Shown here one piece after another: positions 8,637 to 35,481 of a stretch of DNA of 64,000 bases (position 1 is the first letter of the stretch; the number at the start of each line of letters is the position of its first letter). The position numbers and the translations under genes are program-made. This DNA is from a virus (taxonomy: Duplodnaviria; Caudoviricetes): IMG/VR virus record IMGVR_UViG_2630968332_000001, positions 32,001 to 96,000 of that record. One strand, given 5' to 3'. The notes under the pieces were generated by a model. That model was not told the origin of the DNA, made no database searches, and saw only the letters and a program-made list of their open reading frames with translations.

Positions 8637-9047
8637 ATGGATAGACCATTGCAAAACATAAACGACATAGATGAATCTAAAATTATCGAAGTCTATGATA
8701 ATCTATTGTGGTATAAATTGCCATTAGATAATGGATGGACATCTTATACGCTGCGTGCGGTAGATTGTATGCACGATAACGTGGAAATCTATAACAAGGA
8801 TAATGTCTATTCTGACGATGGCTATACCCTCGGTGTTAATTTCTCACATATTCCTTCTGAACGCTATGACGAACTACGTCCCATTGTTAAATGGTATGGC
8901 TGCAAGATTGAAGACGATGGGGAAGTTGTATTAAACACTAATAAGATGAGATTTGGGAATCCATTGTTGAACATGACGTTAGCCCTTAGTACAATCGAAA
9001 ACTATTTTGAATTTAGTGGTAAGAAGGGAGATTATCCGTACAAATGA
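8637..9047 (+). CDS. Hypothetical protein (possibly DUF1828-like)
   Basis: SD AGGAGG; SDDGYTL motif. Confidence 0.6.
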   Translation: MDRPLQNINDIDESKIIEVYDNLLWYKLPLDNGWTSYTLRAVDCMHDNVEIYNKDNVYSDDGYTLGVNFSHIPSERYDELRPIVKWYGCKIEDDGEVVLNTNKMRFGNPLLNMTLALSTIENYFEFSGKKGDYPYK

Positions 9048-9418
9048 CAAGTGCTGAAAGAGAGTTTAATAAATCAGTACGTAGATTAGACATGTACTTA
9101 GAAGATGGTAATATGGTCTCTGCTGACATTGAACTAAAATCTATGCGTAGAGTATATGATGAAATGAAGAAACTAGAAAGTCATAGTGTTACCTTCTGGC
9201 TTTTTGTTACAGCAGCTCTAGTTGTGTATATTGGTATGGGGTGGGGTAAGTATGAAATACCAACTATGCTAATGACAGGGCTAGAGGCAATATCATTTGC
9301 TTTGATGACTTATGTTTCTAATATAGTAGACAATTTCATTGATAATATCGAATACTGGGAAGACAAGTATAATCTGCATAAGGAGGTGAATAGACGAGTT
9401 GACAACAGTATCAACTAA
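9044..9418 (+). CDS. Membrane protein
   Basis: Two TM segments. Confidence 0.6.
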   Translation: MTSAEREFNKSVRRLDMYLEDGNMVSADIELKSMRRVYDEMKKLESHSVTFWLFVTAALVVYIGMGWGKYEIPTMLMTGLEAISFALMTYVSNIVDNFIDNIEYWEDKYNLHKEVNRRVDNSIN

Positions 9419-9659
9419 CAATGTAGTAACAGTATATACTAAGAATAATTGTCAGCAATGCAAAATGACAAAGAGAAAGTTGCAAGCTATGGGAGTTGAT
9501 TATCACGAATATAACGTAGATAACGACCCTAAAGCACTAGAATACCTATTAGAGAAAGGTTGGACTAGCTTACCTGTTGTAGTTACAGAAGATGATGTTT
9601 GGATGGGGCTGCGAATGGATAAGTTAAACAATCTTCAAAAAAAGATGAAGATTTCTTAG
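9399..9659 (+). CDS. nrdH: NrdH-like glutaredoxin
   Basis: VYTKNNCQQCKMTKR, SLPVV, W.G.R.D. Confidence 0.88.
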   Translation: MTTVSTNNVVTVYTKNNCQQCKMTKRKLQAMGVDYHEYNVDNDPKALEYLLEKGWTSLPVVVTEDDVWMGLRMDKLNNLQKKMKIS

Positions 9660-9667
9660 TTTTTCTG

Positions 9668-9731
9668 TTGACTTTTATTTTTTATATGGTATTATAATAT
9701 ATGTAAGTTAAGAGTTAAGAGAATAAACGAA
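9668..9731 (+). promoter_or_regulatory. Strong promoter of the RNA island with conserved leader motif
   Basis: TTGACT 9668-9673, TGgTATTATAAT 9687-9698, AGTTAAGAGTTAAGAGAATAAACGAA 9706-9731. Confidence 0.75.
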
Positions 9732-9812
9732 TAACTCAAAGCTACAACAAAACAATTAAATAAATCTGTTAAATATGTTGAACTTAATGTAATTGTCCTT
9801 ACGTGAGTCAAC

Positions 9813-9893
9813 AATCGGATAGCTTAATGGCAGAGCGTACGAGTATGATAACGATACTTGTAAGGTTTGGTGTTCAATTCATCAATCCGATAT
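9813..9893 (+). tRNA. Aberrant tRNA-like element (extended anticodon stem, degenerate T arm)
   Basis: Acceptor ATCGGA/TCCGAT, D arm AGCTTAATGGCAGAGC, 9-bp stem TACGAGTAT/ATACTTGTA, GTTCAATTC loop. Confidence 0.45.
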
Positions 9894-10423
9894 TTGTCAC
9901 AGTGATATTTATTTTACGCATTCACAACGAGTGCCTCCTTGAATTTAAACTTATTTTTCTGAATTATGTATACCTAATCACTGTGACACACCTCCAAGTT
10001 AGATTGGTAGGTGGGTAAAACGGTATTGCCCATCTACATAGGGTTTGGTTAGAATGTTAACTTATAACTCCTTCCGTCCAGAAGTTGCCAAATCCTATGT
10101 AGGTAGACAAAACTTAGTTTGCCTAAACAACTTTTGCAATTCTGAAAAGGATTTGTACTTCCAAATTTTTCTTATAATTGATGATATTCTATGGTTAGTG
10201 TATCTCTAGTCTATTTTGTTAATTACATTAATACTAATTTTAATATCATCTCTTTAAAACTTTTCTTTTATATTATTTTTGTTTTTATCTGTAAATGTCA
10301 GCCCATTAGGGTTGATATATCAGCGAGTAGGCGGTTGACTCTTGATATATTTTTTAAAAACCTTCTTATGTATTTGTATTTTGGCTACTCGTTGATATAT
10401 CTATCTTAATTGGAGGTGCAAAG

Positions 10424-10639
10424 ATGGATAAGCTAAGTAATATGATTGATAGATTTCTCTTGACGAGAACATGGTATGTAATTCAATGGTTGTTCATTAT
10501 GACCGTTGCGTTTGACCTAATCTTTTATAGCTATGGTTTCTGGACTAAGTTATTTTATTTAGCTGGTTTGGCAGCTGGGTTTAGCAATATAAAAGAATGG
10601 CACAAGAAACATATCTATTCTGTTAAGAGAAAACACTAA
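10424..10639 (+). CDS. Small membrane protein
   Basis: SD GGAGGTG; two TM segments, basic C-terminus. Confidence 0.6.
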   Translation: MDKLSNMIDRFLLTRTWYVIQWLFIMTVAFDLIFYSYGFWTKLFYLAGLAAGFSNIKEWHKKHIYSVKRKH

Positions 10640-11004
10640 AACTACATAAGGCAGCTTTGATTGTTGCTAAAGGGAACGGGTTGGTTTTTCACATCCTTTC
10701 AATAAATACAGATAATTAACCCCTATTTACTAATACGATACTGACACAGTTTTTCGTCCCGTTCTCTCTAGGAGCTATTAAAATGCTCTCCCAAAACAAG
10801 TCTACTATATGTTTAGAGTCTAGAGAATAAATGGTAGACATTTGGTATGTAAAATGTTGGACTGTCGGGAACACTATACCACACAAGCTAATATGCGGCT
10901 TTTACATACCACGCTCACAGACTTTAAAGGGAATGTGGGAGCGGATAGGCGAACGCGAATAGTGTAGTTAGTAAACCTATGCGTAATTATTTATCCTAGT
11001 TGGT

Positions 11005-11079
11005 AGTCATGTGGTGTATTCGGGTAACACGCTCGTCCTTGAAACGAGAGCAGTAAGGTTCAAGTCCTTGCTATGACAT
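11005..11079 (+). tRNA. tRNA-Gln(TTG), slightly atypical
   Basis: D arm GTGT..GGTA.ACAC, anticodon arm CTCGT-CCTTGAA-ACGAG, T loop GGTTCAAGTCC. Confidence 0.7.
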
Positions 11080-11182
11080 AGAGGTGGAAACACCTCGAAA
11101 CAAACATTTATTAATTCGTTCATTTTTTATTAGTTGATTAGGTTTTGCGTATTAATCAACACTCCTTTTTAAATTATTTTGG

Positions 11183-11236
11183 TTGCCACAGGTGCAGTAA
11201 AGGTGCATTTTATAGGTTCGACTCCTACTGTGGTAA
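11183..11236 (+). ncRNA. tRNA-like element lacking an anticodon arm
   Basis: TTGCCACAG/CTGTGGTAA stem, GTGCA..TGCAT hairpin, T arm TAGG-TTCGACT-CCTA. Confidence 0.55.
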
Positions 11237-11394
11237 TTGGGGTAGAGCATGACTACCCCGAAAGCACAATAACGGTAAGTGCATAGATTTGTGTAATTTT
11301 TTGACATTGAATCTGAATTAATTCATGAACAGGTTCATTACGACTTACGGATTGGTTCATGATTTAAGATTTCCTCCTTTTGAATTAGAAGGTT

Positions 11395-11454
11395 CGCAAC
11401 GTAGCTCAACTGGTAGAGCAAAGGATGATGTGGGTTCGAGTCCCACCGTTGCAA
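11395..11454 (+). ncRNA. tRNA-like element lacking an anticodon arm
   Basis: Acceptor CGCAACG/CGTTGCA, canonical D arm TAGCTCAACTGGTAGAGC, only 10 nt before T arm GTGGG-TTCGAGT-CCCAC. Confidence 0.7.
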
Positions 11455-11500
11455 TTAGCCAATATGGCTATAAATATACAATAGAAAAGAGGTGAGATAG

Positions 11501-12757
11501 ATGAAGACAATGAGTGAGTTAAAATACCACTATGGCTTGAAGATGTGTATTCACCCTAGCACGAAGCAAAAGCAAATCATTAAGATGAACAGTGATGTAT
11601 CTAGGGCTGTATATAACGCTATGGTTGCGATTGATAAAGAGTTGTATCAACTCAAACAGGTAAAACTACCTATTGATACAATCCAAACACGTATTGCTGA
11701 ATTAGAAAAACGTAAGAAGGCTCAAAACTATTTAGCAACGCACTATACTTACATGAAACACCCTTATATTGATAGTCATTGTCGTTCTATGGCAATGCGT
11801 TCTTATAAAGCTGCATGGAATATGTTTAGAAAAGTTCATAACGTTGGTACACCTAATTTTCATAAGAAAACTTACGAGGAGAAGTATCAAACAAGTGGAA
11901 CTTATACGAGTAAGAAGAAACCAGTTAATATGTGGACTGGCTCAATTAGATTTGTAGACAATAAACATATTAATATTCCTAAGCTGGGTATTATTCGTGT
12001 GAGTGGTTCGTATAGAAAACTACTAGATAATAAAGATGATATTAGAATTGGCACAACTACTATTTCTAAAAATGCTTTTGGTATCTACTACGTTTCTATG
12101 CAGTTGGGTTCAGATACACCTTTTGTTAAAGAATTGCCTAAAACTAATTCTCAAGTTGGAATCGACTTGAATACAGATAACTTCTTAACAACAAGCGAAG
12201 GTAATGTTATAGCTAACCCGAGATTTTATAGAACTATCAAGGGTCGATTGGCTAAAGCACAACGTAAATTATCACGCAGACAAGTTAGAGCCAAGAAAGA
12301 AGGACGCTCCTTACGTGATAGCAAGAATTACCAAAAGCAACGCATAGTGGTATCAAAACTTATGAATAAAGTGCGTAATCAACGTAATAAATTCTTAGAT
12401 GAAATGTCAATAACACTTATCAAGAACCACGATTTGGTTGTGGCTGAAAATCTAAGAAGTAAAAATATGTTGAGAAATCACGCTTTGGCTATGTCTATTA
12501 GTGATGTAGGTTGGAGAACATTCCTACAAAAACTAGAATACAAAGCTGAATTATATGGTAAGACTTTTGTTACTGTAAATCCTAAGAATACTACACAAAC
12601 ATGTAGCGAATGTGGGCATGTTATGGGAACAAAAGATACGGATAAGCTAACACTAAAAGATAGAAGTTGGGCTTGTCCTAGCTGTAATACTTACCATATA
12701 CGTGATGTAAATGCAGCAAAGAATATCCTAGACAAAGGATTAAAACAATTAGCCTAG
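11501..12757 (+). CDS. tnpB: IS200/IS605-family RNA-guided endonuclease TnpB (solo, no tnpA)
   Basis: N-terminal HTH, RuvC-I GIDLN, RuvC-II VAENL, Zn finger CSEC..CPSC, RuvC-III RDVNAAKNI; catalytic D/E/D intact. Confidence 0.93.
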   Translation: MKTMSELKYHYGLKMCIHPSTKQKQIIKMNSDVSRAVYNAMVAIDKELYQLKQVKLPIDTIQTRIAELEKRKKAQNYLATHYTYMKHPYIDSHCRSMAMRSYKAAWNMFRKVHNVGTPNFHKKTYEEKYQTSGTYTSKKKPVNMWTGSIRFVDNKHINIPKLGIIRVSGSYRKLLDNKDDIRIGTTTISKNAFGIYYVSMQLGSDTPFVKELPKTNSQVGIDLNTDNFLTTSEGNVIANPRFYRTIKGRLAKAQRKLSRRQVRAKKEGRSLRDSKNYQKQRIVVSKLMNKVRNQRNKFLDEMSITLIKNHDLVVAENLRSKNMLRNHALAMSISDVGWRTFLQKLEYKAELYGKTFVTVNPKNTTQTCSECGHVMGTKDTDKLTLKDRSWACPSCNTYHIRDVNAAKNILDKGLKQLA

Positions 12758-12936
12758 AAATAGGTAGTCCGTTTGTCTGTTGCGGACTCAAAAGCATTTG
12801 GTAATTACCATGTAAGACCTTTATTTCAGATTTTTCTGATACAAAGGCAACGGTGTATCTAATGAAATTTTGGCAACCCTAAAAAATTAGGAGTTCCCAA
12901 AACCCTAGTACTGTGGGATTTGTTAGTCTGTTTTTA
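12755..12936 (+). ncRNA. omega-RNA/tracr-like scaffold of TnpB
   Basis: Directly 3' of tnpB; hairpin AGTCCGT-ttgtctgtt-GCGGACT; RE-like hairpin CAAAACCC..GGGATTTG. Confidence 0.65.
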
Positions 12937-12938
12937 GT

Positions 12939-13155
12939 GTGTTACCCATATGTGCGTGGGGACAGACTGGAATACGTACAAACGATATACTCAAACTCAA
13001 GGTGTTACCCACATACGTGTGGGGCAGACTACGGCAAGTTTTTTAAAGACAATGAAGAATATGTGTTACCCATATGTGCGTGGGGACAGACTATATGTAG
13101 TTAAGAGTTTAGCGAACAAACGAAAGTGCTACTCATATGTGTCAAAGAACATATA
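12939..13155 (+). CRISPR. CRISPR-like mini-array: 3 repeats plus 1 degenerate, 3 spacers
   Basis: GTGTTACCCATATGTGCGTGGGGACAGACT at 12939-12968 and 13063-13092 (identical), variant 13002-13030, degenerate from 13126; unique spacers of 33, 32 and 33 nt; repeat hairpin. Confidence 0.88.
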
Positions 13156-13165
13156 GCTATATTTA

Positions 13166-13207
13166 CTCACCTCGGTAGTTCTGTTCTGGTTCAACTCCAG
13201 AAGTGAG
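13166..13207 (+). ncRNA. tRNA minihelix-like element (acceptor plus T arm)
   Basis: CTCAC/GTGAG stem stacked on TTCTGG-TTCAACT-CCAGAA. Confidence 0.4.
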
Positions 13208-13214
13208 CTTTGTA

Positions 13215-13612
13215 CCAACTCCTGATACACCTCTAATCAAGGCAAGACCGTTATGCGTCTTTTAATGTAGGACAGGTGCGGTACGGCATCTCATTAGTAC
13301 GTTACTCGAGGGTACGGAAGGTGTTTTGCAAGGGATATACTATGCCAAGTGTGGAGGTTGATTACCTCGCAGCAGATAGCTACTGTTGTCATACGTGCGA
13401 GCTTGGTGTGTGTAGTTAGATGTGCCGATTATTTAGTAAGTTATCTCAAAGTGGCGAGATGACTTTTTCGCTGGGGATAAGCCCAATCGTTTAGATATAT
13501 CCACCAGTTGCTTTAGCCAGTTATCCTCTCGTAGCAGTGGAGTTCTTTCGCCGAACTTGCTAGGGAACAGATTGTTGAGGCGAATGCAATTTAATGTTCG
13601 ATAACTGGTTAT
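13215..13612 (+). ncRNA. Candidate large structured RNA (GOLLD/ROOL-like context)
   Basis: About 400 nt, GC-richer than flanks, no credible ORF, many helices, abuts tRNA-Ser. Confidence 0.6.
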
Positions 13613-13616
13613 ATTT

Positions 13617-13706
13617 GGTAAGTTACTCAAGTTGGTGAAGAGGACTGTTTGCTAAACAGTTAGGTCTGCGATTGTGGACGCAAGGGTTCGAGTCCCTTAC
13701 TTACCG
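13617..13706 (+). tRNA. tRNA-Ser(GCT)
   Basis: GGTAAGT/ACTTACC acceptor, ACTGT-TTGCTAA-ACAGT, long variable arm, AAGGG-TTCGAGT-CCCTT, discriminator G. Confidence 0.92.
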
Positions 13707-14013
13707 TTAACAATTAAATATTAAAATTCGTGTGTATATAGGAACAAATCTGATTGTATTTATAATTTTGGTTTGTACAAACAAAAATCTTATAATATTT
13801 ATAATTATCTTATTGTTTTAGAACAAATTGCGACACCTCCTTTACTAAACCGCCCGCTTTTTGTCCTAACATGCAATTTTTAAAATAAAAGCCTGTGAGT
13901 GAAAGTAGCTACTGTTTTAAGCAAGTGCCCCGCTACTTAAATTTTTAAAAGTGAAATTTTAGCAAAACTAAAGCCAGATTTGTTCCTACATGCACACGAA
14001 TTAGAGAAAGAAG

Positions 14014-14739
14014 TTGGTTAGTATTATTTTCGTGAATGCCCCGATAGGTGCGGGTAAGACAAGCCTAACACGTATGCTCGTTGCAGATTTAGGCACTAAA
14101 GGTTTCTATGAAGAAGTTGATAAGATACCTATGCTCAAAGAGTTTTACGCACAAGGCGAAGAAAGTAGAAATGATTTAAGTTTTGCTTTACAAATCGCCT
14201 TTTTAAATTACCGTTTTGGACAATTACGTGAAGGACTGCATTTGGCTGAACGTGGAATTGTCAATACAGTATATGATAGTTCCTTGATTTCTGACGCTTT
14301 AATGAGTTTTAACTTGTATAAGCGTGGTGAATTTCCAGAAGTTATGTACAATCTTTACGTAAGTTTAAATCAAAATATGGTTTCTGATGTTGCGGGTCAT
14401 CCGTTCAATGGTTATCCAGATTTAATTGTATTCCTAGATATTCCATTTGATTTAATGCTAGACCATATTTCTAAGCGTGGTCGTGATATGGAAGATATAC
14501 GTAAAGACCCTAAGCTAGTAGATTACTATTATTCTGTATGGAACACATACAATTCATGGTACGACAGTTTCGGTCAAGCACCAGTAGTTCGTGTGGATAT
14601 GAGTAAATACGATTTCGTAAACAACTTATCCGACCGTAATACCGTACTTAATCTAATTGAACAAAAACTGGTTGATTTAGGTAAATTAACACAAGATGAG
14701 TTCGATAAAATCAAAGCAAAACGTGATAAGGAGGTGTAG
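14014..14739 (+). CDS. Deoxynucleoside kinase (dNK family)
   Basis: APIGAGKTSL P-loop, FALQIAFL, ISKRGRDME. Confidence 0.88.
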   Translation: MVSIIFVNAPIGAGKTSLTRMLVADLGTKGFYEEVDKIPMLKEFYAQGEESRNDLSFALQIAFLNYRFGQLREGLHLAERGIVNTVYDSSLISDALMSFNLYKRGEFPEVMYNLYVSLNQNMVSDVAGHPFNGYPDLIVFLDIPFDLMLDHISKRGRDMEDIRKDPKLVDYYYSVWNTYNSWYDSFGQAPVVRVDMSKYDFVNNLSDRNTVLNLIEQKLVDLGKLTQDEFDKIKAKRDKEV

Positions 14740-14747
14740 CCGATTTA

Positions 14748-14969
14748 TTGCGTAACATTGAAAAGTTATCTAAACCAATTTATATCATTAAAGGTTTGAG
14801 CGATGATTACTATCATGTAACCACAGATAATACTGCTGATGGTACAGATGTATTGTTTAGTAGCGATAATGGTATTGAGTTATTATCATTCGTTAGTGGT
14901 TATAATATCAACGCTCAAATTAAAATCAATGAAGATGAATTGGAAAATCTAATTACTGAATTATCATAA
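14748..14969 (+). CDS. Hypothetical protein
   Basis: SD AAGGAGGTG. Confidence 0.6.
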   Translation: MRNIEKLSKPIYIIKGLSDDYYHVTTDNTADGTDVLFSSDNGIELLSFVSGYNINAQIKINEDELENLITELS

Positions 14970-14981
14970 GGTAGGTAAACG

Positions 14982-15611
14982 ATGAGTTCAATTAACAAGG
15001 TGTTGTATGGAGATACTAATTATCTCAATACACTTAAAGATAAAGTTAATAAAGTAGTAAACAAAAACTTGAAACAAATCTCTAAAGAAAAGGACGGTGA
15101 CTATATGTTTACAAGCACAAAATTGGTAGAAGCTCCTATGCCTCCAGTCAAAGCATATATTGGTTGTTCATGGTTTAGTGATAAACAAACGGAACATATG
15201 AAAGCTGGGATAGAAGCTATCAAAGCTAACCCTAGTGTAAGTTGGGAATACTCACATTATCCATTGGCACATCAATATAAAGGTATGGACGTGAATAACA
15301 ACCCAGAAATTATGCTTGATAAAGAGTGGCAGATGGCAACTGTATCAGCCGATATTGAAGGAATTAAAGGCTGTGAATTAGGTATTATGCTTTATGTTCC
15401 AAGTGAACCAGATGATGGGCAAGCATGGGAAATGGGTAACTTATACGGACATGGTAAGCAATGTGTTGTAGTTATTCCAGATGATGAAGTACACGAACCA
15501 TTAAATCTTATGGTTGCATGTGGTACAACACGCATTATTAAGTTATCTGAATTAGCTACATTTGATTTCAGACATGTAGTTGCTGATGTCTATGACGGTG
15601 AAGTCTACTAA
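14982..15611 (+). CDS. ndt: Nucleoside 2-deoxyribosyltransferase (start may be 15104)
   Basis: YIGCSWFS, HQYKG, EW..AT...D, DDGQAWEMG, LNLM motifs of Lactobacillus NDT/PDT. Confidence 0.85.
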   Translation: MSSINKVLYGDTNYLNTLKDKVNKVVNKNLKQISKEKDGDYMFTSTKLVEAPMPPVKAYIGCSWFSDKQTEHMKAGIEAIKANPSVSWEYSHYPLAHQYKGMDVNNNPEIMLDKEWQMATVSADIEGIKGCELGIMLYVPSEPDDGQAWEMGNLYGHGKQCVVVIPDDEVHEPLNLMVACGTTRIIKLSELATFDFRHVVADVYDGEVY

Positions 15612-28408: not shown

Positions 28409-29965
28409 CTGCTATATAAAATGTGGAATAATGTAGAACAATATTTATTAGTTCTACATTATTAGAAAGAAATATAGTTTTTCCTTTCCTAGATTTTATT
28501 TACTACCGTCAACAACAGTATTCCCATATCCTAATAAAAGGGTAATGACATTGACTGTCTCTGATAACCTAAGGGTGTAGCCCACCCCGTTGTATTTTTA
28601 TGCTACTAAATTCAATAAATTCATAACCGCATTTTCATCTCTATCCATAATCGAACCACATTCATAACAAATATATTCGTTATGTTTTGTTCCATGCTTA
28701 CGATTACCATTAAGACCAACTTTATCTTCGCCAGTCTTGATATATCCACATTCAGAACATCTTTGTGTGCTTGGATAATATTGGTCTGCTAAGACTATTT
28801 CCTTGCCATACCAGCCAGCTTTATAAACCAATACTTGTCTAAAAGTTCCAAATAATGACCTTTGTAAACCTTTAGAAGCAACGTGTGTCATCTGCATTTT
28901 CTTCACATCTAAATCTTCGATTACGATTTTGTCGTAATCACTTACTAATTTAGTTGTAAATTTATGAATAATATCATGTTGGATATTAGCCACTTTACGA
29001 TAATCACGTTGCAACTTGGCTCTCGTTTTAACGTAATTATTCGACTTAGTTGCTTTCTTTCCATTAACAACACGTTTTCTAGCTAACTGACGTTGGTAAT
29101 GTTTGATACGTTTATAGAGTTTCTTTAGATGATTAGGCAATGTATTAACTTTACCTTCGGTATAGTTAAAATGACCGACATTAATATCTACAGCTGTTTT
29201 CTTACCAGTTTTAGTTTTCTTGGTTATTTCAACTTCAAAAGGTAAACTAGCCCAATATTTACCGTTTTCACGATAAATTGATACAACTTTTAAATCACCA
29301 TCTAAACTCTTAGCGCCTTTAAAACTAATACCATACCAAGTTTTAACCCCACGAGGTTTATCAAGTCTTAACTTGCCATTAATAATCTTGGCTCTGTCAG
29401 TTTTAAAACCTTGTCTAGTAGCTTTCTTAGATTTAAATTTAGGTTTACCCCAGTCTGGCATAGCTTTATTAAAAAAGTTGCTCCATGCTTTACCTAAATC
29501 AGAAATCGCTAACTGTAAGCAACGAGGTGATAATTGATACTGCCAATCCTCTTTATTAGCTACTAACTCATCACGCACCTTGCGTTCGCTAGGTTTTAAC
29601 TTTTTATCATCTAAAATCAACGAACTATCATACATATCATTCCATAAAGCTAAGCCTTGATTCCAACAATATCTACGATAATCACATAAATCATCAAGAA
29701 CTTTCTTCATGGTTTTATTTGGATAAAGTCTTACCTTTTGCGTTCTAATCATATATATCACCACCTTGCTTCACAAAATTGATATAATAAATTTATCTTC
29801 TATATTATACTAACTTTAGAGAAGTAAGTCAAGATATATTCATGAAAAAATGAAGATGTTTTATGTTTTTGAATTCATTGTTTTTAAGCCTATTTCACAT
29901 TTTTACTCTTTCTAGTAGGCTCGTTGTTCTATATAGTTCTACATAATTCTATATTTTTGTTAACA
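28409..29965 (-). mobile_element. Non-autonomous IS607-family element (tnpB only); ends approximate
   Basis: TAGAA subterminal repeats at both ends (~29925-29955 and ~28430-28460); separates an SD and CTG from the MTase frame. Confidence 0.6.
28598..29764 (-). CDS. tnpB: IS607-type TnpB RNA-guided endonuclease
   Basis: MIRTQKVRLYPN, TAVDIN, VIEDLD, CSECG..CYECG, DRDENA; catalytic residues intact. Confidence 0.9.
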   Translation of the reverse strand: MVIYMIRTQKVRLYPNKTMKKVLDDLCDYRRYCWNQGLALWNDMYDSSLILDDKKLKPSERKVRDELVANKEDWQYQLSPRCLQLAISDLGKAWSNFFNKAMPDWGKPKFKSKKATRQGFKTDRAKIINGKLRLDKPRGVKTWYGISFKGAKSLDGDLKVVSIYRENGKYWASLPFEVEITKKTKTGKKTAVDINVGHFNYTEGKVNTLPNHLKKLYKRIKHYQRQLARKRVVNGKKATKSNNYVKTRAKLQRDYRKVANIQHDIIHKFTTKLVSDYDKIVIEDLDVKKMQMTHVASKGLQRSLFGTFRQVLVYKAGWYGKEIVLADQYYPSTQRCSECGYIKTGEDKVGLNGNRKHGTKHNEYICYECGSIMDRDENAVMNLLNLVA

Positions 29966-31669: not shown

Positions 31670-32323
31670 TCACCCCACATACACAATCATCACACCGTCT
31701 TCTGTGGTACTTATTTTAAATAGCCTTTCGTACTCTTCGATATACTTATAGACATAGTTCTTTTTAACCTGTGACTCGTTTGAATGATAATTCAAAATTT
31801 TCGTTTTAACACCTTTGCCAGTAAAGAAGTCTTCATAACCAAAAAGAGTGTATGGAATAATAGCTTTGGCTCTACCGTTTTTATCTATGTTGCGTAGTAT
31901 TTCACGTTCTATTTCATAAAAAATGTGTAAGTATTCCACACTGTACTCATCTTCAGACAATCTAAACATTTTACTTGCAGTAGTCCCAAAGCCATCAGCA
32001 TTTCGCCACGAGATATTAATTTCGTAATCATTGTTTACAAGTCTAAAAATCTCTGGTGTTATAACATCAAAGTCGTTATCATCATTGACTAAGATTTTGA
32101 TAAATCTTTCATAACATTCCAGTCCTTCGCTAAGATTGTGACCGATAGATTTATCAACAAACAGATTTTGCAACTTACAATAAGTAACATCAATTTCTTT
32201 TAACCCAATTTTTGCTGCTGCTTCAATTTGTTTAAGTGCCACATCTAGCAAATTGTCAATAATTATTTCTTTTCTTTTTCTATCTATTCTATTATCAAGA
32301 GTTTTTGTATAAAAAATACTCAT
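31670..32323 (-). CDS. Hypothetical protein (distant member of the next paralog set)
   Basis: IEAAAKIGLKE resembles MAKIGICA; SD GGAGGTG. Confidence 0.65.
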   Translation of the reverse strand: MSIFYTKTLDNRIDRKRKEIIIDNLLDVALKQIEAAAKIGLKEIDVTYCKLQNLFVDKSIGHNLSEGLECYERFIKILVNDDNDFDVITPEIFRLVNNDYEINISWRNADGFGTTASKMFRLSEDEYSVEYLHIFYEIEREILRNIDKNGRAKAIIPYTLFGYEDFFTGKGVKTKILNYHSNESQVKKNYVYKYIEEYERLFKISTTEDGVMIVYVG

Positions 32324-34945: not shown

Positions 34946-35009
34946 TTCGTTTATTCACTGAACTCTTAACTTAACTATTATATTATATCATATATTAATA
35001 TTAAATCAA
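34946..35009 (-). promoter_or_regulatory. Promoter with conserved leader motif and hairpin
   Basis: TTGATT..TGaTATAAT then AGTTAAGAGTTCAGTGAATAAACGAA. Confidence 0.7.
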
Positions 35010-35169
35010 GAATTAAACACAAAAAACCTCGCAGCAAAATACTACGAGGTCAAAAAGGTTTACAGTGTGTTATAATGTATCGTGGCGAAAGTTATAAAGA
35101 CGGTGGCTGACTTATTAGAAAGTGTGGTGTTGCCTATGCAATGCGAAACTAACGAAAGGAAAGCCATTT

Positions 35170-35253
35170 GTGTCTGTCTATCAAGCCTTGATGTTGACGT
35201 TAACATTCGGTATGTTCCTATTGGCATTACTGACATACATCAGCAAAAAGTAA
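35170..35253 (+). CDS. Holin-like type I toxin (BsrE/BsrH-like, 27 aa)
   Basis: MSVYQALMLTLTFGMFLLALLTYISKK; SD GAAAGGA; own promoter and terminator. Confidence 0.85.
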   Translation: MSVYQALMLTLTFGMFLLALLTYISKK

Positions 35254-35481
35254 GCAACTTTGTTGTAACGATAGTAGATACAGTAAAACCGTCCGATTGT
35301 AACTTTGGCGAGTTCGTGGACGGTTGCTGTATGTGACTATCTAAATAACTATGCCACCGTCTTTTAAACGGTCGCTGTGAGTCATGCTTCGGCATGGCTT
35401 TTTCTATTTATAGAATATCACAAAATGCAATAAATTACCATATTTGATATTTCACAACGTTTCACAGCATTCCATTTATTG

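Follow-up and report, generated by a model that had tools for sequence, protein, structure and literature searches.

In the tRNA region of phage T4, a cluster of transfer RNA (tRNA) genes is co-transcribed with two stable RNAs of unknown function. An acceptor stem plus T arm is the feature recognised by ribonucleases (RNases) P and Z. In Firmicutes, an RNA that begins with a 5'-terminal hairpin is shielded from the 5' exonuclease RNase J1. Firmicutes also have regulatory RNAs with C-rich loops, RsaE/RoxS and RNAIII, that pair with ribosome-binding sites. In Bacillus subtilis, RNase III is reported to cleave stems flanking ribosomal RNA, small cytoplasmic RNA and phage SP82 RNA (PMC4838370). 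In the TnpB-derived type V-U groups, duplicated omegaRNA segments downstream of the nuclease gene are the proposed origin of the arrays (PMC10691335), and TranC systems are described with arrays downstream of a TnpB-derived nuclease (10.1101/2025.09.28.678669). Here we analysed a 64,000-nucleotide (nt) stretch of phage DNA (the window; positions 32,001 to 96,000 of IMG/VR record IMGVR_UViG_2630968332_000001, a virus record of 129,218 bases), with emphasis on its interval 9660-14013, which holds RNA stem modules, tRNA-type elements and a tnpB gene with a spacer array. Our preferred reading, held tentatively, is that this interval is one early-promoter-driven, mostly non-coding + strand operon of a ~129-kb phage, and that the stem modules act as processing, stabilising and insulating cassettes of the operon precursor.

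Like the T4 cluster, the interval has tRNAs and non-tRNA structured RNAs in one unit, whose release by tRNA-processing enzymes we infer here. Unlike T4-type clusters, three of its five tRNA-type elements are truncated or odd, it includes a nuclease gene with guide RNAs, and a conserved stem follows each proposed cutting signal. As in RsaE/RoxS and RNAIII, C/U-rich tracts with complementarity to ribosome-binding sites lie unpaired next to hairpins. In contrast to these RNAs, the modules have no Rfam match and no terminator or promoter of their own, and several tracts are unconserved. The long RNA-bracketing stems within a putative early phage transcript are similar to the Firmicutes RNase III substrates described in PMC4838370; modules M1 and M4 are shorter than the usual substrates. 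Comparison with known systems leaves the enrichment of CU-rich tracts, the two RNAs that we call RNA-A and RNA-B, and the three truncated tRNA-like elements unexplained.

Stem modules and tRNA-type elements of the operon

Comparisons rest on three to four related sequences, namely the window phage, its relatives G001 and G002 (~127 kb each, with 80-97% DNA identity to the window phage in 500-nt tiles) and, in places, a metagenome contig. The genes, tRNAs and other features of the operon all lie on the + strand. Its first half runs from the promoter through TL1, M1, hairpin H1b, M2, an A/T-rich stretch and M3 to an open reading frame (ORF) of 71 amino acids (aa). The middle comprises M4, RNA-A, tRNA-Gln, a G+C hairpin, M5, TL2, a hairpin, M6, TL3 and a further hairpin, and the 3' part consists of tnpB, the omegaRNA, a repeat-spacer array, RNA-B, tRNA-Ser, M7 and a kinase gene. 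The promoter, the tRNA-type elements and the stem-bearing parts are as follows (bp, base pairs).

9668..9695, + strand: early-type promoter (TTGACT, 16 nt, TATTAT, with TG), which opens the operon
9696-9745, + strand: leader of ~35 nt, found after 5-6 similar promoters per genome
9814..9892, + strand: tRNA-like element 1 (TL1), tRNA fold with an over-long 9-bp anticodon stem; Rfam tRNA 32.4 bits
9893..9990, + strand: M1, 12-bp closing stem 3 nt past TL1, inner hairpin, unpaired CCTCCTT
9988..10018, + strand: H1b hairpin, CACCTCC tract paired to a GGTGGG-type partner
10020..10116, + strand: M2, 18-26 bp stem and 39-nt loop with invariant CTCCTTCC
10300..10415, + strand: M3, 29-bp stem whose 3' arm reaches into the ribosome-binding site of the 71-aa ORF
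10665..10772, + strand: M4, 10-bp closing stem and unpaired ATCCTTTC tract
11006..11078, + strand: tRNA-Gln (UUG), called by ARAGORN; Rfam tRNA 38.3 bits
11079..11179, + strand: fragment S2, with G+C hairpin 11081-11096, an A/U-rich linker with CAT, the M5 hairpin 11133-11160 and invariant unpaired ACTCCTTTTT
11180..11237, + strand: tRNA-like element 2 (TL2), acceptor stem, one 5-bp arm with a 7-nt loop, T arm; no D arm
11238..11394, + strand: fragment S3, with G+C hairpin 11239-11259, a variable linker, the M6 hairpin and invariant TTTCCTCCTTT
11395..11454, + strand: tRNA-like element 3 (TL3), acceptor, D and T arms; no anticodon arm; Rfam tRNA 46.1 bits
13616..13707, + strand: tRNA-Ser (GCU), called by ARAGORN; Rfam tRNA 57.4 bits
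13722..14005, + strand: M7, 37-nt bracketing stem with CACCTCCTTT in its interior

The promoter belongs to a promoter-plus-leader family of 5-6 near-identical units per genome, the others of which precede ribosome-binding sites. This repeated family suggests that the operon is an early unit transcribed by the host polymerase. The family pattern is TTGACT, 17 nt, TATAAT and a leader of ~35 nt, and its places are window 9696-9745, 563-587 and 34946-34973 plus three places of the genome outside the window. Several features point to the + strand as the transcribed one. M3 folded at -40.5 kcal/mol on the + strand versus -23.5 kcal/mol on the - strand, a difference of 17 kcal/mol, with three G-U pairs on + and none on -. 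In TL1, the M6 hairpin and M3, one-sided substitutions are preserved as G-U pairs on the + strand only. Thus the first-pass annotation, a set of predictions made from these letters before the present work, was right to treat the region as rich in non-coding RNA and read from the + strand, given the strong promoter at its start, the co-oriented genes and tRNAs, the retained G-U pairs and the stronger + strand fold of M3.

The precursor would be punctuated by tRNA-type elements. ARAGORN called tRNA-Gln and tRNA-Ser alone in the interval, leaving TL1, TL2 and TL3 uncalled. An acceptor stem plus T arm was nonetheless found at each proposed cutting signal, by Rfam scores (tRNA gathering score, 29) and, for TL2, by its predicted fold with a compensated arm. 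In TL3, 5 nt replace the 17-nt anticodon arm, and in the TL1 of G002 two changes keep their pairs as G-U. Each of the five tRNA-type elements is followed 2-17 nt on by a stem (starts at 9895, 11081, 11239, 11456 and 13725). These stems show signs of conserved pairing. Across four sequences, 7/93 predicted pairs of 11079-11470 changed on both sides, among them pairs in the short hairpins after tRNA-Gln, TL2 and TL3 and in the TL2 arm. The 5' hairpins of S2 and S3 each have one compensatory pair, and the hairpin 11456-11470 after TL3 has two.

Two further observations concern these elements. The tRNA-Gln orthologue of G002 (L002 5580-5652; window 11006-11078) has the anticodon UUA and was called tRNA-Stop by ARAGORN, so that it is a possible ochre suppressor; small deletions occur in the anticodon region of tRNA-Gln in DNA contigs from two runs. 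A Y RNA/Ro identity for TL3 was rejected, as the phage genome has no TROVE domain and TL3 no Rfam Y-RNA match.

The five stems listed by the first-pass annotation all exist. The arms of M1 (9895-9906/9977-9988) are complementary at 12/12 positions and those of M4 (10671-10680/10758-10767) form 10/10 pairs allowing one G-U. Longer arms bracket M2 (10023-10048/10088-10113; 26 nt, 81% complementary), M3 (10302-10330/10385-10413; 29 nt, 83%) and M7 (13725-13761/13966-14002; 37 nt, 84%), and these three are among the four longest inverted repeats of the window. The stem lengths of M2 (18-26 bp), M3 (29 bp) and M7 (26-37 bp) agree with the ~two helical turns expected of RNase III stems. Each module was folded on the + strand against 200 shuffles, which M1 (9893-9990, z -6.4), M2 (10020-10116, z -4.4) and M3 (10300-10415, z -6.8) clearly beat. 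The arms of M1 differ in sequence in G001 and G002 and retain their complementarity. The outer stem of M7 is common to the phages and encloses one of two interior alleles, both of which form an inner stem of their own; G001 and G002 carry the interior that the window phage does not have. The M2 stem is invariant among the relatives and is therefore uninformative on conserved pairing, and the M3 5' arm is shortened in G001 by the insertion of a second TnpB element. M7 starts 17 nt past tRNA-Ser and stops 9 nt upstream of the kinase gene, at whose start region it ends; M3 likewise ends where the start region of the 71-aa ORF lies. Every module is single-copy in the genome, so a resemblance to miniature inverted-repeat transposable elements was discarded.

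The remaining inverted repeat of the top four is the Hol_Tox locus at window 35085-35375, where 32-nt inverted repeats surround a 43-aa ORF (35122-35253, + strand; Pfam Hol_Tox, E 6.4e-10). This stem-bracketed small-toxin locus lies near another early-type promoter.

Collectively, these features suggest how the operon may work. The two tRNAs and the three truncated tRNA-like elements would serve as RNase P/RNase Z cutting signals along the precursor. The conserved stem after each of them would shield the fragment that follows from 5' exonuclease by capping its 5' end, and the long stems M2, M3 and M7 would be double-stranded RNA of RNase III size. The modules may in this way shape, stabilise and insulate the products, which would be the tRNAs, two abundant unclassified RNAs, the messenger RNAs (mRNAs) of a small membrane protein and of tnpB, the omegaRNA and the guide array. 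TnpB with its omegaRNA and guide array would then cut rival phages. Excision by tRNA processing and RNase III had been proposed in the first-pass annotation; it fits the anatomy, and the cuts themselves are ones that we infer.

RNA-A, RNA-B and transcript evidence

The remaining parts of the operon include two protein genes and two conserved RNAs.

10424..10639, + strand: gene of a 71-aa hydrophobic protein with a strong ribosome-binding site; kept in G001 and G002
10785..11005, + strand: RNA-A, a conserved unclassified RNA directly upstream of tRNA-Gln
13156..13615, + strand: RNA-B, a structured unclassified RNA with a core at ~13336-13610; holds decayed tRNA pieces
14014..14739, + strand: deoxynucleoside kinase gene (Pfam dNK), the downstream border of the operon

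The 71-aa ORF encodes a small membrane protein, for which no family match was found. RNA-A has one change over ~150 nt among the three phages. In RNA-B, 11/179 predicted pairs are compensated between two phages, and in G002 RNA-B and part of tRNA-Ser are deleted. An Rfam search of 9000-15000 with E up to 1 gave the tRNA matches and one weak plastid match and nothing else, and with E up to 10 no usable match was found for 10640-11010 (RNA-A) or 13120-13625 (RNA-B). Within RNA-B, window 13430-13490 holds a decayed, incomplete copy of the tRNA-Ser 5' part, and a T-arm-like minihelix lies at ~13160-13210; the RNA-B region has the look of a tRNA-gene graveyard whose remains serve as RNA structure.

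RNA contigs from two metatranscriptome runs of a single gut study could be placed on the operon at >=85% likeness. They are without strand or true ends.

10580-10736: RNA contig, depth 3.8
10763-10924: RNA contig, depth 2.9
10785-10986: RNA contig, depth 32.1
11637-11905: RNA contig, depth 2.6
12708-12960: RNA contig, depth 16.5
Array pieces with other spacers: RNA contigs, depth 2.8
13228-13622: RNA contig, depth 10.6
13336-13608: RNA contig, depth 162.3

The depth in the RNA runs was uneven (2.6-162) compared with the even cover of the whole interval in DNA runs, which argues for RNA rather than carried-over DNA. No RNA contig fell on M1-M3 or M5-M7. Both tRNAs were likewise uncovered, and such libraries usually lose small RNAs, so that the missing cover of the modules allows no conclusion.

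Several observations weigh against the processing model. Over all five stems, G-U pairs number 8 on the + strand versus 4 on the - strand, a weak asymmetry. The + strand folds of M4 (10665-10772, z -1.8), M5 (11098-11178, z -1.3) and M6 (11300-11392, z -1.5) are at shuffle level, and for M4 the minus strand gives the better fold (z -5.1). For RNase III, a stem of 12-14 bp (M1) or 10 bp (M4) is short. The covariation statistics are thin, coming from three to four related sequences, and the RNA contigs, giving neither strand nor true ends, map no RNA ends. Finally, the model leaves unexplained the ~five-fold enrichment of the CU-rich tracts, their invariance in M2, M5 and M6, and the prediction that they are mostly unpaired. 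As a separate matter, M4 as a minus-strand RNA was considered and rejected, the extra minus-strand hairpin not being retained in G002.

CU-rich tracts and other readings of the stems

The first-pass annotation had interpreted the modules as a battery of antisense RNAs whose loops silence host or defence mRNAs at their ribosome-binding sites. The anti-Shine-Dalgarno motifs on which it relied are present where it placed them. On the + strand, CCTCC/CTCCT occurs at 8 sites in 2389 nt of non-coding sequence versus 1.57 +/- 1.21 expected from 500 dinucleotide shuffles, none of which reached 8 (0/500); the minus strand has 4 sites. No 3-kb segment on the + strand of the genome holds more sites than the 7 in that starting at 9501. 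Of the 8 sites, one falls in a tRNA-like T arm (11222), and two or three are paired within local hairpins to a GGAGG-like partner (9990, 11092 and 13364). Likewise, CAT triplets exist at 11121 and 11305, as do the hairpins between them and the CU tracts; it had taken these hairpins to bring CAT and CU tract together.

A trans-acting role of this kind would make S2, S3 and perhaps M1 and M7 stable small RNAs, excised by tRNA-processing enzymes, the CU tracts of which block ribosome-binding sites of the host or of rivals. The motif enrichment agrees with this, as do the invariance of the tracts in M2, M5 and M6 (3/3 or 4/4 sequences) and the predicted probability of being unpaired, which is 0.76-0.99 for M1, M4, M5 and M7 (0.95-0.99 for the motif of S2). 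S2 and S3 also have the form of discrete RNAs, opening with a compensated G+C hairpin after one tRNA-type element and ending at the next. Against this, the motifs of M2 and M6 are about half paired in the predicted ensemble (0.41-0.59 unpaired; 0.41-0.43 for the motif of S3), the motif of M1 is mutated in G001, that of M7 sits in the interior absent from the G001/G002 allele, and the CCTTCTT of M3 is kept in neither relative. When six loops were compared with 150 crude phage start regions, 0/6 exceeded 60 shuffles in complements >=7 nt or in the longest exact complement, so that the target complementarity on which the antisense proposal depended showed no excess over shuffles at phage starts. 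The fragments have no Rfam family match and no RNA contig, the latter being true of the tRNAs as well, and an RNA directed against ribosome sites in general would not spare the mRNAs of the phage itself. A full-text literature search, judged by title and start of abstract, found no paper on phage batteries of anti-ribosome-site RNAs. We consider a trans-acting role unlikely.

One weak lead for it involves the host. The phage probably infects Lactobacillaceae of the bird gut, because relatives of its TnpB (~41-75% identity) occur at 77 loci in bacterial genomes, 72 of which have Lactobacillaceae names, and near-identical DNA in public runs came mostly from bird-gut and faecal metagenomes. The tracts complement an AAAGGAG register that is ~2x commoner before Lactobacillaceae starts, a comparison of raw counts at crude start calls that assumes this host. 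AAAGGA preceded 26/287 starts at Lactobacillaceae loci versus 6/150 in the phage, and AAGGAG 25/287 versus 7/150; the phage's preferred register is GAGGTG (18/150). It is conceivable, and in our view improbable, that small RNAs from the early promoter, released at tRNA-like punctuation and with 5' hairpins as caps, show a tract in the host-favoured AAAGGAG register and not the phage GAGGTG, and so blunt host translation and spare phage messages.

Alternatively, the CU tracts may act in cis by pairing with the ribosome-binding sites of the 71-aa ORF, tnpB and the kinase gene, silencing them until processing separates the partners. H1b pairs with the start region of the 71-aa ORF at -21.2 kcal/mol versus -10.9 +/- 2.6 kcal/mol for shuffles (0/200), and the M3 3' arm overlaps the ribosome-binding site of that ORF. 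When 11296-11505 and 11360-11505 are folded to minimum energy, each of the three phages shows the M6 tract reaching over TL3 to pair with the tnpB ribosome-binding site. These partners change in the longer fold 11079-11505, however, and the M6-tnpB pairing was equalled by 181/200 shuffles. Only 1/24 module-by-start-region pairings beat shuffles, and the H1b match is down to ~9 nt in G001 and G002. The tracts (6-8) also outnumber the genes (3). This makes regulation in cis distinctly unlikely.

At the DNA level, the interval might be a hot spot of rearrangement, its stems being recombination sites or else the termini or scars of small mobile elements. The M7 interior has been swapped between phages with unchanged outer arms, the second TnpB element of G001 lies exactly at the M3 5' arm, the tnpB-omegaRNA unit 11482-12919 is common with an unrelated 180-kb contig at 89%, and RNA-B with part of tRNA-Ser is lost in G002. 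We nevertheless judge this explanation quite improbable, since the modules are single-copy, their pairing tolerates G-U, which is relevant to RNA only, compensated pairs occur in short hairpins other than element ends, and no Y1 transposase was found in the three phages. The idea of homing, in which the operon would be more conserved than its surroundings, was ruled out by the 500-nt tiles, which are 80-97% identical inside and outside it.

Translated minus-strand mini-ORFs, with the CAT triplets as start codons and the CU tracts as ribosome-binding sites, are highly improbable: the tracts do read as good sites and ORFs of 15-51 codons start at 9922, 11123, 11307 and 11360, but the spacing from site to ATG is 12-14 nt (M1, M6) or 37 nt (M5) where 5-10 nt is expected, M2 and M4 have no start codon, the M1 peptide shifts frame and length among phages (15 vs 35 codons) with its site mutated in G001, the M6 ORF, at 35 codons in one phage, has 16 in the rest, and the ORFs lie antisense to tRNA or tRNA-like genes among neighbours that are all on the + strand.

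The TnpB nuclease and its spacer array

Under the processing model, the operon would also deliver the parts of an RNA-guided nuclease. The first-pass annotation had passed over TnpB, the omegaRNA and the spacer array, as well as the 71-aa ORF and the three tRNA-like elements.

11501..12757, + strand: TnpB RNA-guided nuclease, 418 aa (Pfam OrfB_IS605, Cas12f1-like TNB and HTH_OrfB; PF01385, PF07282, PF12323)
12758..12938, + strand: omegaRNA scaffold, homologous to the region downstream of 59-63% identical TnpB relatives that have no array
12939..13155, + strand: CRISPR-like array (CRISPR, short palindromic repeats that are clustered and regularly interspaced) of three 29-30 nt repeats and a decayed fourth, period 61-63 nt
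12969-13001, 13031-13062 and 13093-13125, + strand: the three array spacers

The best natural match of this TnpB in the PDB was 8bf8, a 408-aa TnpB chain (E 1.3e-35). In a single alignment with a 408-aa designed nuclease, its GIDLN, VAENL and RDVNAAKNI motifs align with acidic residues, which we take to be the RuvC catalytic positions. Neither Cas1 (PF01867) nor the Y1 transposase (PF01797) was found in the three phage genomes. An anti-repeat, the partner of a tracr (trans-activating CRISPR RNA)-like kind, was sought by RNAduplex of the repeat against 12 operon parts, none of which went beyond shuffles (absolute z <1.5). The other TnpB genes are only 29-36% identical to the array-linked one and so are not multiple copies of one element. 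One of these is the second TnpB of G001 (L007 5731-7023, between window 10148 and 10319), which is 36% identical, has its own omegaRNA and replaces 171 nt; it abuts the M3 5' arm, so that the arm occupies its guide position. A third, unrelated TnpB-type gene of 388 aa lies at window 28598-29764 (- strand; PHROG 506 transposase).

The arrays differ between close relatives. G001 has five repeats and a decayed one with five spacers, G002 has four repeats with three spacers, and none of the 11 spacers is common to the window phage, G001 and G002. About 5 further, different spacers were read in four public runs. The record of G001 is annotated with a "direct terminal repeat" (L007 9627-9836, L001 1-220) that falls within the array; it is probably an assembly break at the array repeats and not a true genome end.

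Two of the 11 spacers have a match. Spacer 3 of the window phage matches the leader behind the operon promoter in G001 and G002 at 29/32 positions, the first 17 nt being identical, and the window phage's own copy of the leader has an extra base at position 8 of the match. Spacer 5 of G001 matches TL2 of the metagenome contig L031 at 30/31; its match in G002 has a 2-nt gap and that in its own genome is partial. AAT lies directly 5' of both protospacers (n=2) and at the left flanks of the element in two genomes. The other nine spacers were compared with the three genomes and the analysed loci. The six spacers of the window and G002 arrays were also compared with the phage isolate collection, and no match was found there. 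As a related observation, window spacers 1 and 3 and one spacer from a public run (X1) resemble the leader of the promoter family. The operon thus appears to carry a weapon against rival phages' copies of the same operon, which would act by cleaving their DNA.

An unrelated 180-kb contig gave a second view of the unit. It carries a TnpB 93% identical to that of the window phage, with 11482-12919 alone in common, and its omegaRNA runs directly into a guide, followed by repeats that copy the last omegaRNA hairpin. This is the array origin that PMC10691335 describes as a proposal for such systems. Like the V-U and TranC systems as described, the locus has a nuclease of TnpB size with an intact RuvC, a downstream array whose repeat resembles the last omegaRNA hairpin, and no cas1. 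In contrast to them, it is phage-borne, it matches the solved TranC in the C-terminal part only (E 4.9e-23), and two of its 11 spacers match the same operon of relatives. Since many type V-U groups are also reported to be without Cas1 (PMC10691335), the absence of Cas1 does not exclude membership. We regard the tnpB-array locus as a new member or variant, carried by a phage, of the TnpB-derived type V-U/TranC kind.

For the phage's Pol III alpha-type DNA polymerase, the best matches in the isolate collection came from a Clostridioides phage and large Bacillus phages, at only 36-38% identity. That collection was also searched for near and distant DNA matches to 9600-14100, 9660-11500 and 12700-14100, which returned tRNA-Ser only. 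Exact-pattern scans found the two relatives alone in the viral collection and one 1410-nt contig in metagenomes.

Archaeal viruses with mini-arrays reportedly carry arrays only and use host Cas proteins; unlike them, this phage encodes its own nuclease. Virus-borne mini-CRISPR arrays are described as serving conflicts between related viruses (PMC6858448), and the present arrays are similar in being short, in lying in virus genomes and in having spacers that match close relatives. If the processing model is true, a phage of Gram-positive bacteria would use compact tRNA-like punctuation and 5' stem caps, and several RNA products, guide RNAs among them, would be delivered from one early transcript. 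The tnpB part would be a transposon nuclease turned phage weapon, with an array derived from the terminal part of its own omegaRNA. The spacers have turned over between close relatives without cas1, and two of them are aimed at rivals' copies of the operon that carries them. Together, the spacer turnover and the rival-operon targets mean that a natural phage population could be used to test how TnpB became a CRISPR effector and where new spacers come from.

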